This document shows positions 9,077 through 41,310 of a stretch of 64,000 nt of DNA, in pieces (position 1 is the first letter of the stretch; the number at the start of each line of letters is the position of its first letter). The position numbers and the translations under genes are program-made. The notes beneath the pieces were generated by a model that saw only the letters and a list, made by a program, of their open reading frames with translations, did not search any database and was not told the origin of the DNA. Source of the stretch: a virus (lineage: Duplodnaviria > Heunggongvirae > Uroviricota > Caudoviricetes); IMG/VR virus record IMGVR_UViG_3300032038_000051, positions 12,740 through 76,739 of that record. One strand, written 5' to 3'.

Positions 9077-9387
9077 CGGGCCTGATGGCCCGAGGAAGGA
9101 GGGCGCGCATGGCGACGGCGCGTCTCATAGAGGAGGAGGTGCCTCCCATCGGGTACGGCGAACCGCTGTATAAGCGGTACGTGCCTGTGGTGAGGCAGTT
9201 CTACGACTCCGGGATGAAGTCGGCACGGGTCGAGATCGAGGACGGGAGCGACGATCCGAAGGCGCTCGCCGGCAGGCTCCATAACGCGATATCGAGCCTC
9301 GGCCTCACGGGCGAGGTGAAGGTATCGAAGCGCGGGGACGCGACGTACCTGAGAAGGGTGAAGGGTGTGAACTCAGGTGCGCTATGA
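9073..9387 (+). CDS. hypothetical protein
   Basis: ORF between the HNH and methyltransferase genes, overlapping both. Confidence 0.4.
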   Translation: MTGLMARGRRARMATARLIEEEVPPIGYGEPLYKRYVPVVRQFYDSGMKSARVEIEDGSDDPKALAGRLHNAISSLGLTGEVKVSKRGDATYLRRVKGVNSGAL

Positions 9388-10591
9388 GATTCACAACGGG
9401 GAGTGCGCCGAGGTCATGGCGTCCATGGAGCCGGAGTCGGTAGACGCAATCGTGACAGACGCGCCTTACGGCCTGTCGTTTATGGGCGCAAAGTGGGACA
9501 GCTTCGGAGGCTCGACCGGCAATCAGACCGTGAGCGAGCGGCAGGCCGAGGGAAAGAGATACGCCGACGAGAACAAGGGCGCTCCAAGATACGGAAACTC
9601 CCATGGCAAGAAGGTCACGCAAGGCGAGATGGTCGCGTTCCAAGAAGCAATGACGCCGATATTCGAGGAGGCTCTCAGGGTTGCGAAGCCCGGCGCTCAC
9701 CTCCTCTGCTTCGGAGGCACGAGGACGTTCCACCGCATGGCGTGCGCCATAGAGGATGCTGGCTGGGAGATTCGCGATTGCATCATGTGGACATATGGGT
9801 CGGGCATGCCGCACGGACAGCGTGTCGAGAGGCTCATGGAGGGGCGGTACCCAGACGAGGTCGCTGAGTGGTCCGGGTGGAACACGGCGTTAAAGCCGGC
9901 ATGGGAGCCTGTTCTGGTGGCCCGCAGTCCGCTTGACGGGACCGTCGCGCACAACGTCGCCACTTATGGCACGGGCGCGATCAACATCGGCGCATGCAGG
10001 ATACCGACGGAGTCACATGACCCATCGCGTGACGGGGAGGCCACCAAGGACACACGGTACACCGACAGGGGTGCGACCAACTTCGCGGCGAAGCCGGGCC
10101 CGAGGGGCGGGGACCCAAGGGGTCGATTCCCTGCCAACCTGGTCCATGACGGCAGCGACGAGGTGCTTGCGTGCTTCCCGGACTCAGACGGGCAGATAGC
10201 CGACCGTGGGGCCATGTCGAAGTCGTCAGTCAATTGTTATGGCGACTATGGCGCGGACTCGGCGTTCGTCAAAAGAGGCGACTCCGGCAGTGCTGCTCGG
10301 TTCTTCTACTGCGCCAAGGCGAGCAAGAAGGACCGCAATCGCGGTGGCGTGAACAACAATCATCCATCGGTCAAACCCAACGACCTCATGCGATGGTTGG
10401 TCCGCCTCGTATGTCGTCCGGGAGGGGTCGTGCTCGACCCGTTCATGGGAAGCGGCTCAACCGGCGTCGCGTGCATGGACGAGGGGATGGACTTCGTCGG
10501 CATAGAGCTCGACCCGCACTACTGCGAGATAGCCGAGAAGAGGATGGCGGCGGCCAACGCCGAGACCGGGCAAATGGAGCTTGCGCTATGA
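9377..10591 (+). CDS. DNA methyltransferase (N6-adenine or N4-cytosine, beta class)
   Basis: Motif IV-like TDAPYG near the N-terminus and motif I VLDPFMGSGSTGVAC near the C-terminus. Confidence 0.8.
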   Translation: MRYEIHNGECAEVMASMEPESVDAIVTDAPYGLSFMGAKWDSFGGSTGNQTVSERQAEGKRYADENKGAPRYGNSHGKKVTQGEMVAFQEAMTPIFEEALRVAKPGAHLLCFGGTRTFHRMACAIEDAGWEIRDCIMWTYGSGMPHGQRVERLMEGRYPDEVAEWSGWNTALKPAWEPVLVARSPLDGTVAHNVATYGTGAINIGACRIPTESHDPSRDGEATKDTRYTDRGATNFAAKPGPRGGDPRGRFPANLVHDGSDEVLACFPDSDGQIADRGAMSKSSVNCYGDYGADSAFVKRGDSGSAARFFYCAKASKKDRNRGGVNNNHPSVKPNDLMRWLVRLVCRPGGVVLDPFMGSGSTGVACMDEGMDFVGIELDPHYCEIAEKRMAAANAETGQMELAL

Positions 10592-10782
10592 GCAGGGCAA
10601 CGTACGCGCTCTACAAGGGCGACAGGCTTCTCGGCGTGGGCACGCTTCAGGAGCTCGCGGAGCGCCGCGGCGTGAAGCCCGAGACCATCTACTACTACAG
10701 CATGCCGGCATATCGGCGGCGCGGCAAGGCGAACGGCAACAGGCTGGTGGCCGTGAGGGTCGCCGAGGGGAGCATGGCATGA
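10588..10782 (+). CDS. hypothetical small protein
   Basis: ATGA-coupled small ORF between two methyltransferase genes. Confidence 0.4.
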   Translation: MSRATYALYKGDRLLGVGTLQELAERRGVKPETIYYYSMPAYRRRGKANGNRLVAVRVAEGSMA

Positions 10783-11257
10783 GCAACTTCTACGAGCACG
10801 GAAAGGCCGCGATGACGTCCGAAAGGGACGACTGGGAGACGCCGCAGCGGCTATTCGACGAGCTGGACGCGATCCACCACTTCACGCTGGACCCGTTCTC
10901 GAACGGCGCAAACGCGAAGTGCGCCGAGTTCTTCACCAAGGAGACCGACGCGCTCGAACAGGACTGGGGGGGGGTCGCTTCTTTGCGAACCCGCCATACG
11001 GTCGCAGGATGGCGGACTTCGTCCGCAAGTGCGCGGAGGAGTCGGCACGCGCCAGCGGCGTGCTCCTCGTCCCCGCGAGGACGGACACCGCGTGGTTCTG
11101 GGACTGGGTCGTCCCGTACGCGAGCGTCAGGTTCCTTCGCGGCAGGCTCAAGTTCGAGGTCGGCGGGGTGCCGGGGCAGTCTGCGCCGTTCCCGTCGATG
11201 CTCGCGTTCTACGGCCTCGACGACCCCTTGGCGGTGAGGATACCGTGCGCATCCTAG
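10779..11257 (+). pseudogene. Dam-family (phage N6-adenine) DNA methyltransferase, frameshifted at a G9 tract (10966..10974)
   Basis: N-part MSNFYEHGKAAMTSERDDWETPQRLFDELDAIHHFTLDPFSNGANAKCAEFFTKE...DWGG in one frame; FANPPYGRRMADFVRK...LLVPARTDTAWFWDWV...RFLRGRLKF continues in another frame after GGGGGGGGG; both parts together match the phage Dam family. Confidence 0.75.
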
Positions 11258-11913
11258 TGGCGTGCGAGGAGTCCGGCACCGTCACGCAGGCGTTCAGGAG
11301 GAGGTGGGGCGACGCCCACCAGATATACTCCTGCGACCTGCTCCCCACGAGCGGCAGGCTGCCGCAGAGGCACATACAGGCCGACGTCCTCGAGCTGCTC
11401 AAGATGGACTGGGACATGGTGCTGGCGTTCCCGCCCTGCACGCACCTGGCCGTGTCCGGCGCGCTCCACTTCGACGAGAAGAAGCGCGACGGCAGGCAGC
11501 AGCGGGCGATAGGGTTCTTCCTGGCGTTCACGGCGCTCGACCACGTGCCGCACGTGTGCATAGAGAACCCGGTCGGCATCATGAGCAAGCTGTACCGCAA
11601 GCCCGACCAGTTCATACAGCCGTACCAGTTCGGCCACCCCGAGACCAAGAAGACGTGCCTGTGGCTCAAGGGCCTACCGCCGCTCGAGCCGACCAAGGAC
11701 CTCGAGGCGGAGGTCATGGCGATGGACCGCAAGGACAGGCAGGCGATCATGAAGCTCTCACCCAGCGCCGAGCGCGGGAGGATACGGAGCAAGACGTACG
11801 ACGGCATCGCGAGGGCGATGGCCGACCAGTGGGGAGACGAGGAGAGGCTCGTCCCCGCGCAAATGGAAATTGACGTGACGGACATGGGCGGCGCAAGCCG
11901 TCCTTCTTATTAG
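11245..11913 (+). CDS. DNA (cytosine-5)-methyltransferase-like protein (atypical)
   Basis: AFPPCTHLAVSGA (PC motif IV-like) and IENPVG (ENV motif VI-like); no Gly-rich motif I; GTG start overlapping the Dam gene. Confidence 0.5.
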   Translation: MRILVACEESGTVTQAFRRRWGDAHQIYSCDLLPTSGRLPQRHIQADVLELLKMDWDMVLAFPPCTHLAVSGALHFDEKKRDGRQQRAIGFFLAFTALDHVPHVCIENPVGIMSKLYRKPDQFIQPYQFGHPETKKTCLWLKGLPPLEPTKDLEAEVMAMDRKDRQAIMKLSPSAERGRIRSKTYDGIARAMADQWGDEERLVPAQMEIDVTDMGGASRPSY

Positions 11914-12326: not shown

Positions 12327-13432
12327 TGCGGTTCGACATCTCCCAGACGTCGCTCGCGCGGGCCATGGCGACGGTCGGCAAGGGCGTCTCGTCGTCGGCG
12401 ACAACGTCGGTCTACGGCGGCGTCCGCATCGAGGCGCGAGACGGCGAGGTCGAGTTCCGGACCACGGACGGGCGAGTGTCCGTCTCCCACGTCGCGCCCG
12501 CGAACGTCGAGGGGCAGGGCGCCACGGTCCTCTCGTGGCACGTCCTCGATCGCGTGGTCAAGGGCATGCCCGACCGCGCCGTCGGCTTCGAGCTCGACGG
12601 GCAGAAGATGTCCGTGAGGTGCGGGAAGTCGAGGTGGAGCCTCAACGCCCTGGCCGACGGCGGGTTCCCGGACTTCCCGGAGTTCGACGTCAGGGCGTCG
12701 GTCACGCTGCCGAGGGCCACGCTCGCAGACATGGCGGGGCGCACGTGCGCGGCGGCGTCCCGCGACAGGAGCGAGTCCAACCAGGCCCTGCTCGGCATCC
12801 TGCTGACCGTCGGCGACGGGAGGCTGTCGCTCTCCGCGACCGACCGCAACCGCGCGACGGTATGCGAGACCTCGGTGCCGTGCAAGGACGAGACGTCGGT
12901 CATCATACCCGCGGACGCGCTGAGGAGCGCCCTGTCGATACCGTCGGACGCCCCGGACGTCGCCATACGCGTCGGCGACCGGCACGTCTCGCTCCGCATG
13001 GGCGGCTCGACGCTGGTGACGCCGAGGATAGTCTGGAACTACCCCAACCTCGCGCTGCTGTTCCCCAAGGGGAGCACCACCCGCATCAGGGTCGACGCCG
13101 GCGCGCTGTGCGACGCGCTCAAGAGGGTGTCCGCCGTCGCCGGCCTCGAGCGCAGGGTGACGCTCGTGGCCGAGGAGTCGCTCGCGCCGAGCATGACGCT
13201 GAGGTCGCGCTCCGTGGACGCGGGCAACTCCGTCGAGACGCTCGACGTCCAGTCGGTCGAGGGCGAGCGTCTGGAGATACACCTCAACCACGCGTACCTC
13301 AACGACGCGGCGGCGACCGTGGACGGCGAGGCGTGGCTCCTCGCCGAGGGCCCGCTGAAGCCGTTCGTCGTCAAGTCCGACGGCGACGTCTCGCAGACCT
13401 GGCTGATCATGCCGATGAGACCGGAGGCGTAG
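12308..13432 (+). CDS. dnaN: DNA polymerase III beta subunit (sliding clamp)
   Basis: About 370 aa; N-terminal SQTSLARAMATVGKG...GGVRIEARDGEVEF and C-terminal GPLKPFVVKSDGD...LIMPMR typical of DnaN. Confidence 0.8.
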   Translation: MGEVGVVRFDISQTSLARAMATVGKGVSSSATTSVYGGVRIEARDGEVEFRTTDGRVSVSHVAPANVEGQGATVLSWHVLDRVVKGMPDRAVGFELDGQKMSVRCGKSRWSLNALADGGFPDFPEFDVRASVTLPRATLADMAGRTCAAASRDRSESNQALLGILLTVGDGRLSLSATDRNRATVCETSVPCKDETSVIIPADALRSALSIPSDAPDVAIRVGDRHVSLRMGGSTLVTPRIVWNYPNLALLFPKGSTTRIRVDAGALCDALKRVSAVAGLERRVTLVAEESLAPSMTLRSRSVDAGNSVETLDVQSVEGERLEIHLNHAYLNDAAATVDGEAWLLAEGPLKPFVVKSDGDVSQTWLIMPMRPEA

Positions 13433-14517: not shown

Positions 14518-14727
14518 ATGACGCAAGAAGAGCTCGACGCCAGGTTCGATTACCACCCGCCGAAGGGCTGCCAGCCCGCCAAGTACAGCCTCATCAGGGA
14601 CGAGGCCAAGGATTTTGCAAGAAAGGTAGACGCCTTTTGCCCGGAAGGCCGCGAGAAGTCGCTGGCCCTCACGAACATCGAGCAGGCGGTCATGTGGGCC
14701 AACGCCGCGATAGCAAGGAACGAGTAA
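14518..14727 (+). CDS. hypothetical protein
   Basis: ORF with RBS. Confidence 0.5.
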   Translation: MTQEELDARFDYHPPKGCQPAKYSLIRDEAKDFARKVDAFCPEGREKSLALTNIEQAVMWANAAIARNE

Positions 14728-29689: not shown

Positions 29690-30006
29690 TGGAAGACTTC
29701 TTTCAGGAAATCTTGGTGTATTCGGCCGGCGTGAGGAGACGGGCGCTGATCGTCATAACCGTGTTGCTCGCGCTCCTCACGCTCGTCGCCGCGTACTTCA
29801 CGAGCGGGGTCGTGTCAGAGCAGGACGCGATCGGAGCCAACGCGCACGAGTTCGAGTCGGACAATGCGTGGGACACGTTCGACACGGTGACCGACATGGG
29901 CACCGGCGTCACGTACGTGGTTTGGACCAACGGGCACGGCAGCGGCATGGCGCCGCTGCTCGACAGGAACGGGAGGCCGGTGATTTCGGAGGTGGTTGGC
30001 GAATGA
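29689..30006 (+). CDS. membrane-anchored hypothetical protein
   Basis: N-terminal TM helix RRALIVITVLLALLTLVAAYF. Confidence 0.45.
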   Translation: MEDFFQEILVYSAGVRRRALIVITVLLALLTLVAAYFTSGVVSEQDAIGANAHEFESDNAWDTFDTVTDMGTGVTYVVWTNGHGSGMAPLLDRNGRPVISEVVGE

Positions 30007-40977: not shown

Positions 40978-41052
40978 CGCGGGGTAGAGTAACGGTCACT
41001 CGGCAGCCTCATGAGCTGCTACATGCCGGTTCGAGTCCGGCCCCCGCGACCA
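40978..41052 (+). tRNA. tRNA-Met (anticodon CAT), elongator-type or Ile2-like
   Basis: Cloverleaf folded by hand: acceptor CGCGGGG/CCCCGCG, D stem GAGT/ACTC, anticodon stem GCAGC/GCTGC with loop CTCATGA, T arm GCCGG-TTCGAGT-CCGGC, encoded CCA; C1-G72 paired; G at position 37 is unusual. Confidence 0.7.
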
Positions 41053-41053
41053 A

Positions 41054-41129
41054 GCCCGAGTAGCTCAGCTGGCAGAGCGGCTGCCTAGTAAGCAGCGGGT
41101 CACGGGTTCGATTCCTGTCTCGGGCTCCA
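41054..41129 (+). tRNA. tRNA-Thr (anticodon AGT)
   Basis: Acceptor GCCCGAG/CTCGGGC, D stem GCTC/GAGC, anticodon stem GCTGC/GCAGC with loop CTAGTAA, T arm ACGGG-TTCGATT-CCTGT, encoded CCA. Confidence 0.65.
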
Positions 41130-41143
41130 TGTCACACCCGTAC

Positions 41144-41231
41144 GGAGGCGTGGCAGAGCGGCAATGCAGCTCCCCGCTAAGGAGTACACGTCCGCCGACG
41201 TGCGTAGGTTCGATCCCTACCGCCTCCGCCA
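41144..41231 (+). tRNA. tRNA-Ser (anticodon GCT), type II with long variable arm
   Basis: Acceptor GGAGGCG/CGCCTCC, 3-bp D stem, anticodon stem GCTCC/GGAGT with loop CCGCTAA (C at position 33), long variable arm ACACGTCCGCCGACGTGCGT, T arm AGG(T)TCGATCC, encoded CCA. Confidence 0.65.
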
Positions 41232-41236
41232 TGAAC

Positions 41237-41310
41237 AGGCCCTTGATGTAACGGCAGCATGACGGTCTCCAAAACCGTCCGTGGGGGTTCGAGTCCCTCA
41301 GGGCCTGCCA
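41237..41310 (+). tRNA. tRNA-Trp (anticodon CCA)
   Basis: Acceptor AGGCCCT/AGGGCCT, anticodon stem ACGGT/ACCGT with loop CTCCAAA, T arm GGGGG-TTCGAGT-CCCTC, encoded CCA. Confidence 0.7.

Follow-up and report, generated by a model that had tools for sequence, protein, structure and literature searches.

Phase variation of methylases through poly-G tracts is a classical phenomenon of bacteria. Phasevarions involve the Type III mod genes of Haemophilus, Neisseria and Helicobacter and the Type IIG gene cj0031 of Campylobacter jejuni, the latter through a poly-G tract; in these genes, a repeat inside the methylase open reading frame (ORF) shifts the frame by slippage and thereby turns methylation ON or OFF. 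Here we describe a run of nine G inside a gene for a Dam-family DNA methyltransferase, found in a stretch of 64,000 nucleotides (nt) of a Caudoviricetes virus (positions 12,740 to 76,739 of IMG/VR record IMGVR_UViG_3300032038_000051), the whole of which is hereafter called the window. Like the phasevarion genes, the window gene carries its repeat within the methylase ORF. It differs from them in that its product is a phage orphan of 159 amino acids, without a Res partner or alleles of a target-recognition domain, and in that the repeat lies at one protein-conserved spot, the Trp-Gly-Gly (W-G-G) ahead of the NPPY motif, across a whole phage gene family. The typical architecture of a phasevarion, Mod or HsdM/HsdS with a restriction partner, is not present, since the window Dam is a single-domain PF05869 protein. 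No restriction gene lies near it; around it are further orphan methylases and a gene resembling a nuclease inhibitor.

Slippage on homopolymers has also been described in phages. Poly-G tracts switch the receptor-binding proteins of Campylobacter Fletchervirus phages (Sorensen 2021, as cited in PMC12633550), and agt of phage T2 and rIIA of phage T4 have been presented as contingency loci (Gomez, Barrick and Waters, bioRxiv 2025, PMC12633550). The likeness to the locus studied here would be that homopolymer slippage gives rise to mixed progeny and so to a bet-hedge against host defence (PMC12633550). However, those loci, found within single phage groups, are receptor-binding genes, a glucosyltransferase gene and rIIA, and not a DNA methyltransferase gene, whereas the Dam tract is conserved at the nucleotide level over many unrelated phages and prophages. 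The words ‘methyltransferase’ and ‘Dam’ do not occur in the text of PMC12633550. A methylase comes up there solely where Liu 2004 is credited with a poly-G tract in such a gene of Bordetella phage BPP-1, and tracts of the BPP-1 type are said to have received no further study. In the BPP-1 genome (42.5 kb; our L247), the adenine methylase gene bpm contains a G8 run at 29922-29929, the sole G/C run of at least 8 nt. This gene resembles the window Dam in being a phage adenine methylase with a G run, but it belongs to another family by its motifs: DPPY and FAGSG in the translation make it look PF01555-like, and its tract lies at MPGGVV, before FAGSG.

A small Dam-like enzyme, PamA, is encoded by a Staphylococcus aureus prophage and methylates GATC (Ulrich 2025, PMC12435837). 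Its homologue in phage phiSa2wa (L250) is 47% identical to the window Dam, and the inactivating PamA substitution P65T falls on the NPPY motif if PamA is numbered as this homologue. In contrast to the window gene, the phiSa2wa homologue has Trp-Ser-Glu at the tract site and no G run, and no switching has been reported for PamA. A full-text literature search, whose coverage is incomplete so that a paper not found may nevertheless exist, returned no paper on a conserved poly-G switch in Dam proteins of the PF05869 family. The mechanism is known; what is new is its carrier, an entire phage gene family of orphan methylases in which the tract has a fixed, selected position.

In the window, positions 10966-10974 read exactly GGGGGGGGG (nine G), with a T on either side. 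No other homopolymer in the 64,000 bases exceeds 7 nt, and all remaining G runs are at most 6 nt long (166 G4, 38 G5 and three G6, the last at 2353, 16242 and 38825). The frame of the ATG at 10779 encodes MSNFYEHG...TDALEQDWGG and, past the G9, continues as a spurious frame until 11237. The -1 frame supplies the remainder of the protein, GGGRFFANPPYG / GGGRFFANPPYGRRMADFVRK...IPCAS. The parts of the gene are as follows.

10779 to 10965, plus strand: 5' part of the Dam gene (PF05869) in the frame of ATG 10779, comprising residues 1-62, with W19-E20-T21-P22 and D38, and the first base of the Trp63 codon (TGG, 10965-10967).
10966 to 10974, plus strand: G9 homopolymer, the proposed slipped-strand switch, comprising the last two bases of Trp63 and the next Gly codons.
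10976 to 11257, plus strand: 3' part of the Dam gene in the -1 frame, with RFFANPPYG (motif IV), the PARTDT motif and the stop codon at 11255-11257.

Gain of one G (G10) joins the two halves into a protein of 159 amino acids, and loss of two (G7) into one of 158. The G10 product matched the PF05869 Dam profile with 94.2 bits (E 9e-27; gathering cut-off 28.1) and phrog_111 with an E value of 1e-47, while its score against the NCBIfam equivalog TIGR01712 (92.3 bits) was slightly under the cut-off of 97.05. A PDB sequence search with the Dam profile gave nothing useful. The corrected protein has the catalytic motif IV as NPPYG, in agreement with (N/D)PPY, and keeps the family-invariant residues W19, E20, T21, P22, D38, W63, P72-G75, R101, D103 and T104. 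Because G10 or G7 joins the halves into a Dam-matching protein, the original prediction, made from the sequence of the window, was exact in stating that the G9 at 10966-10974 splits a Dam gene which either of these lengths restores. The length of a repeat inside the ORF therefore sets the frame, as in a contingency locus, with G10 and G7 in frame and G9 out of frame. Dam is one uninterrupted ORF in a relative of the window with G10 (L002, described below), and is split by G9 in the window itself. Methyltransferase activity of the window Dam is predicted, and by analogy with PamA its product would be N6-methyladenine at GATC. The observed/expected ratio of GATC in the window (0.77) is similar to that of other palindromes and is uninformative on the target site.

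We consider it probable that the G run is a slipped-strand contingency locus which turns an orphan phage Dam ON and OFF, and that the window carries an OFF allele. The run would then act as a hypermutable simple-sequence repeat inside the gene for a Dam-family N6-adenine methyltransferase, on which the polymerase would slip during DNA replication, so that a G is gained or lost. G10 (or G7) would give the full enzyme and the ON state, whereas G9 would shift the frame just before motif IV and leave a truncated, inactive product. A phage population would thus contain methylating and non-methylating genomes together. The likely benefit would be a bet-hedge between hosts with restriction enzymes that are blocked by methylation and hosts with methylation-dependent nucleases; prophages might in addition hedge over the cost, or the regulatory effect, of methylating the host chromosome. 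The comparisons that follow show ON and OFF alleles in close relatives, a tract that changes faster than its flanks, codon bias that keeps the run and purifying selection on the downstream half; slippage itself, its reversibility within a lineage and its selective benefit are inferred.

Near-identical contigs were recovered by exact-protein look-ups in other public assemblies. A protein scan of genome contigs found no close relatives, and a scan of metagenome-contig proteins found only relatives at 73% identity or less. Two of the recovered contigs (L034 and L036) were 100% identical to the window across 6.9 kb and were therefore not counted as independent. The tract alleles of the remaining relatives are given below.

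L035, JGI 3300037249: 99.3% identity to the window; G9.
L037, JGI 3300041736: 97.3% identity to the window; G9.
L038, Logan SRR16020822: 97.3% identity to the window; G9.
L002, Logan SRR19524270, 24.7 kb: about 95-97% identity; G10, intact Dam of 159 amino acids.
L039, Logan SRR28037969: 96.9% identity; GAC GGG GGG GTG GGT (G7TG3).
L040, JGI 3300041729: about 95-96% identity; TGTG9 and a replaced Dam 3' end.

Taken together with the window, G9 is present in four strains of this lineage and G10 in one, while two strains carry variant alleles; both ON and OFF lengths thus occur among close relatives. In L039 (297-346), the allele GGGGGGGTGGG is in frame but the family-invariant Trp63 is lost. 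In L040 (1131-1181 onward), the TGTG9 allele is followed by a Dam 3' end that is replaced past window position 11150. These two are either real alleles, compensatory or decaying, or read errors beside a long G run. Single-nucleotide polymorphisms divide the strains into three haplotype groups, namely the window with L035; L037 with L039 and L040; and L038 with L002 and L043, the last of which begins downstream of the tract. G9 occurs in all three groups, G10 also in one, and the two aberrant alleles in another. Since G9 spans all three groups, several changes of tract state have taken place within a very small tree, and such repeated change among diverged strains makes a one-off miscall very unlikely.

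Two further contigs of related phages, L041 and L042, carry 213-amino-acid versions of the gene downstream of Dam. Neither has a Dam upstream of it and both were set aside as uninformative on the tract. They do contain long G runs of their own, in other genes of DNA-modification type: an in-frame G9 at 4731-4739 of L041, in a PAPS-reductase-like PP-loop gene (SGGGDS, phrog_424), and an in-frame G8 at 4016-4023 of L042, in a C5-like methylase (ENPRGG, phrog_757, with a weak PF00145 match). These runs may mark more switchable genes or just Gly-rich motifs.

To assess selection on the two halves of the gene, we computed Nei-Gojobori ratios of non-synonymous to synonymous polymorphism (pN/pS) over six strains. 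The ratio was 0.08 for the Dam 5' half. For the 3' half it was 0.33 in the Dam frame, and 0.26 when only G9 alleles were included, compared to 1.7-3.5 in the other two frames; the downstream gene (11245-11910) gave 0.18. By hand count, the 3' half has undergone about nine synonymous and seven mostly conservative non-synonymous substitutions. As the 3' half evolves under purifying selection in the Dam frame, Dam is not an old pseudogene, and the value of 0.26 indicates that the part after the break was read in the Dam frame while the strains that now all carry G9 diverged. This selection fits repeated ON/OFF switching, or recoding, but not an old pseudogene.

The tract is not confined to the lineage of the window. 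A second lineage, with 67% amino-acid identity, has it in the same W-G-G codons, as G8 in the intact gene of L045, G7 in L046 and G6 in L007, where it is two nt short; the 90% cluster of this lineage comprises four full-length proteins and four C-terminal fragments. In the cultured Faecalibacterium phage FP_Lagaffe (NC_047911.1, 41026-41501; L044, 1492-1967), the Dam homologue is likewise split, with the break at a G7 (L044, 1661-1667) in the same W-G-G codons, where one more G is required. RefSeq annotates only the C-terminal Dam fragment, gp54, in this phage. Across 48 aligned homologues, Trp63 never changes and Gly65 is conserved in at least 90%. Among the 80 best IMG/VR Dam loci, a set that is biased toward intact genes, 21 have G7-G9 exactly at the W-G-G site, and this site accounts for 16 of the 19 G/C runs of at least 8 nt in the 261 kb that these loci cover. 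In dereplicated W-G-G genes, GGG fills the two Gly positions 13/16 and 12/16 times (binomial P about 1e-6 and 2e-5, with a rough ancestry correction), against a background of 23% among the remaining Gly codons of these genes. Tract-bearing contigs span 29% to 61% GC, and the run persists across lineages that share just 45-67% amino-acid identity. Because GGG is over-used at both Gly codons, the homopolymer is kept at the nucleotide level beyond the need of the protein, as expected of a repeat maintained by selection.

We extended these observations with a frame scan that searched for TGGGGGGG followed 10-22 nt on by AAYCCNCCNTAY and retained genes in which both halves match the Dam hidden Markov model, the frames being set by the Trp and by NPPY. 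The scan gave the following numbers of tract-bearing Dam genes.

IMG/VR: 55 in frame, 32 one nt too long, 21 one nt too short.
GTDB genomes: 22 in frame, 11 one nt too long, 9 one nt too short.

Out-of-frame tracts, in both directions, were thus found in 53/108 IMG/VR and 20/42 GTDB genes. The GTDB set includes apparent isolate genomes, mainly of Clostridia and Bacteroidales (L254, L281, L291, L293, L296 and L300), and prophages in apparent isolates of Clostridiales (such as CCNA10), Lachnospiraceae (such as COE1) and Oscillospiraceae are among its members. Tract lengths also differed among contigs with an identical downstream context, with G7, G8 and G9 in three contexts and G8 and G9 in one. 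In contig pairs that differ in tract length, the flanks showed 0 mismatches in 2001 nt, 0 in 1098 nt and 2 in 2001 nt, the last of these pairs being L293 and L296, apparently isolate genomes. In the same flanks, 16 other homopolymers of 6-7 nt showed no length variation. The tract therefore changes faster than its surroundings, differing between contigs with 0-2 flank mismatches per 1-2 kb. The downstream context CAAACGGTCTTCTG is shared by six IMG/VR contigs (L143, L145, L150, L157, L226 and L233), every one of which has a G9 that is one nt too long, and this lineage appears to be fixed in the OFF frame. The length variation, which extends over hundreds of phages and prophages, suggests that these viruses switch Dam on and off by replication slippage. 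The original prediction had raised slipped-strand variation of the gene, and this is supported by the recurring G9, the sister G10, the purifying selection downstream of the break and the family-wide length polymorphism. Its expectation that such switching would be unusual for a phage methylase did not hold, as the tract is common in the Dam family and about half of the copies are out of frame.

A second group of adenine methylases (DLDPCAP...W...NPPYSKPL...LLFNRCDS) has the same tract before NPPY, with G7, G8 and G9 over 16 contigs (L135, L141, L144, L153, L163, L170, L171, L187, L190, L203, L219, L221, L241, L303, L319 and L346).

The window Dam lies within an island of modification genes, and the surrounding features are listed below.

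9377 to 10591, plus strand: first island gene, a beta-class N6/N4 DNA methyltransferase (PF01555 N6_N4_Mtase, E 8e-33).
10588 to 10782, plus strand: gene of 64 amino acids between the first methylase and Dam (phrog_803 ‘host nuclease inhibitor’, E 4e-14; pN/pS 0.31).
11245 to 11913, plus strand: C5-methyltransferase-like protein of 222 amino acids (phrog_757 ‘DNA methyltransferase’, E 2e-61).
14518 to 14727: protein of 69 amino acids with an Acb2/Tad1 hairpin domain (PF24729, E 3e-22), about 3 kb downstream of the island.
40978 to 41310, plus strand: four tRNA genes (Met-CAT, Thr-AGT, Ser-GCT and Trp-CCA).

The original prediction placed three methyltransferases back to back. The three genes, PF01555 at 9377-10591, Dam and phrog_757 at 11245-11913, are indeed there, but because the 64-amino-acid gene intervenes before Dam, the description is right roughly and not literally. 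The 11245-11913 gene overlaps the Dam stop by 13 nt. Its translation has PC and ENPVG (ENPxG) motifs, typical of C5 methylases, and although no match was found in Pfam, NCBIfam or PDB sequence searches, we regard it as a putative C5 methylase. A BLASTP comparison of this protein with the C5-like gene of L042 was not significant, though both match phrog_757. The first methylase is cleanly absent in L037 and L040, where window position 9360 joins about 10600, and L002 has in its place an HNH endonuclease gene and a PF01555 methylase of 336 amino acids. The first methylase is a mobile cassette, and the island is mosaic. By its predicted gene content, the island looks like a modification or anti-defence neighbourhood, and the phrog_803 gene suggests an anti-restriction cluster. 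The protein at 14518-14727 belongs to the Acb2/Tad1 hairpin family, which we take to be anti-CBASS and anti-Thoeris sponge proteins.

Elsewhere in its genome, the phage encodes RecT, ThyX, an RNA ligase, a sliding clamp and HNH genes in addition to the four tRNAs. Both GC skew and AT skew flip sign at about 44 kb of the window, which suggests a switch in gene orientation, and the GC content drops from about 65% to 55-60% at 20-26 kb and 48-64 kb, which suggests modules of different origin. A megablast search with the island against 50,697 phage records gave no match, and tblastn with the sliding clamp found only relatives below 27% identity in the phage records. By these searches, the phage is apparently new and without a close relative among the 50,697 records. 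There are only hints as to the host, namely the high GC content and a Bifidobacterium homologue at 55%.

Several explanations other than switching were weighed. The simplest, also raised in the original prediction, is that the true tract is G10 and that G9 is a homopolymer miscall made in sequencing or assembly. Several platforms do struggle with long G runs, the odd in-run substitutions of L039 and L040 suggest local read problems, and L034 and L036, being identical to the window, bring no independent confirmation. However, three more assemblies (two JGI, one Logan), made from different samples with different pipelines, have G9, and flanks that diverge by 0.7-2.7% from the window mark L035, L037 and L038 as different strains. 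About half of the tract-bearing Dam genes are out of frame in two collections, including G7 tracts and apparent cultured isolates, and none of the 16 other homopolymers in the same contigs varies. An artefact is thus very improbable. Non-adaptive decay would make the G run a weak spot of a dispensable gene and G9 an ordinary loss of function on the way to gene loss. A harmful weak spot would be removed by synonymous change, whereas GGG is strongly over-used at exactly these two Gly positions in genomes ranging from 29% to 61% GC, and the run has persisted over lineages of 45-67% amino-acid identity. A pN/pS of about 0.3 after the break likewise speaks against long-term inactivity. These results render decay unlikely, even though the island is mosaic and dispensable, with its first methylase absent or replaced in relatives, L040 also lacks the Dam 3' end and OFF alleles dominate some lineages. 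The G8-G9 runs of L041 and L042 count in its favour as well: since they lie in frame on Gly-rich motifs, such runs can arise from coding needs.

Recoding would instead make G9 the working configuration, with the break tuning the dosage of Dam. Full-length protein would be produced at a set low rate, either because RNA polymerase slips on the G run or because ribosomes shift by -1 on G GGG GGG. Transcription is known to slip at long homopolymers, G9 is the commonest allele in the lineage of the window, one IMG/VR lineage is uniformly out of frame, the downstream half is under purifying selection even among G9 alleles, and G GGG GGG formally, if trivially, fits the slippery X XXY YYZ. Nevertheless, we find recoding quite unlikely as the main explanation. 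Out-of-frame lengths go both ways (32 long and 21 short in IMG/VR, 11 and 9 in GTDB), with L007 two nt short, so that one fixed ribosomal shift cannot serve all alleles, and the in-frame class is the largest. A convincing stimulatory structure was not found 5-9 nt downstream of the run; the predicted RNA fold pairs the G run itself (z-score -2.3 in a 65% GC context). The well-studied cases of bacterial transcriptional slippage mentioned in PMC3711429 use A or T runs. The conserved arrangement of a programmed -1 frameshift was not seen, and we rejected programmed -1 ribosomal frameshifting as a family-wide mechanism on account of the alleles in both directions, the in-frame alleles as the largest class and the lack of a clear stimulator. 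Recoding may, however, coexist with switching at the DNA level, in that OFF alleles could be leaky if RNA polymerase slips on the G run. A contingency locus accordingly remains the reading that we prefer, and certain points weigh against it. OFF dominates the lineage of the window (four strains against one clean ON) and is found in all six contigs of one IMG/VR lineage, a dominance that also fits simple inactivation or expression by recoding. The odd in-run substitutions of L039 and L040 may be sequencing artefacts. The counts behind the pN/pS values are small (about 16 events in the Dam 3' half), and the codon-bias test allows for shared ancestry only in a rough way. The evidence is a comparison of assemblies, from which heterogeneity within a single population and true reversibility are extrapolated, and the activity and target site of Dam are predictions.

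In a wider form, the proposal would be that many phage and prophage Dam orphans carry a selected, nucleotide-conserved poly-G contingency tract at Trp-Gly-Gly, phage populations, and through their prophages also lysogens, being standing mixtures of ON and OFF genomes that hedge between methylation-sensitive and methylation-dependent host defences. We lean slightly towards this wider form. The share concerned would be about one in four of the best-scoring IMG/VR hits, which come from Clostridia, Bacteroidales and hosts of high GC content.

Few anti-restriction genes are as common in phages as those for orphan methyltransferases. Dam-like enzymes of prophages can also reprogramme the host, as PamA alters the virulence of S. 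aureus (PMC12435837). If the Dam tract is a switch, phage host range and restriction escape would be properties of populations and not of genomes. The methylomes of gut lysogens may then be heterogeneous owing to prophage switches, and many methylase genes annotated as ‘frameshifted’ or as a ‘fragment’ in phages and metagenomes would be real alleles, not errors.

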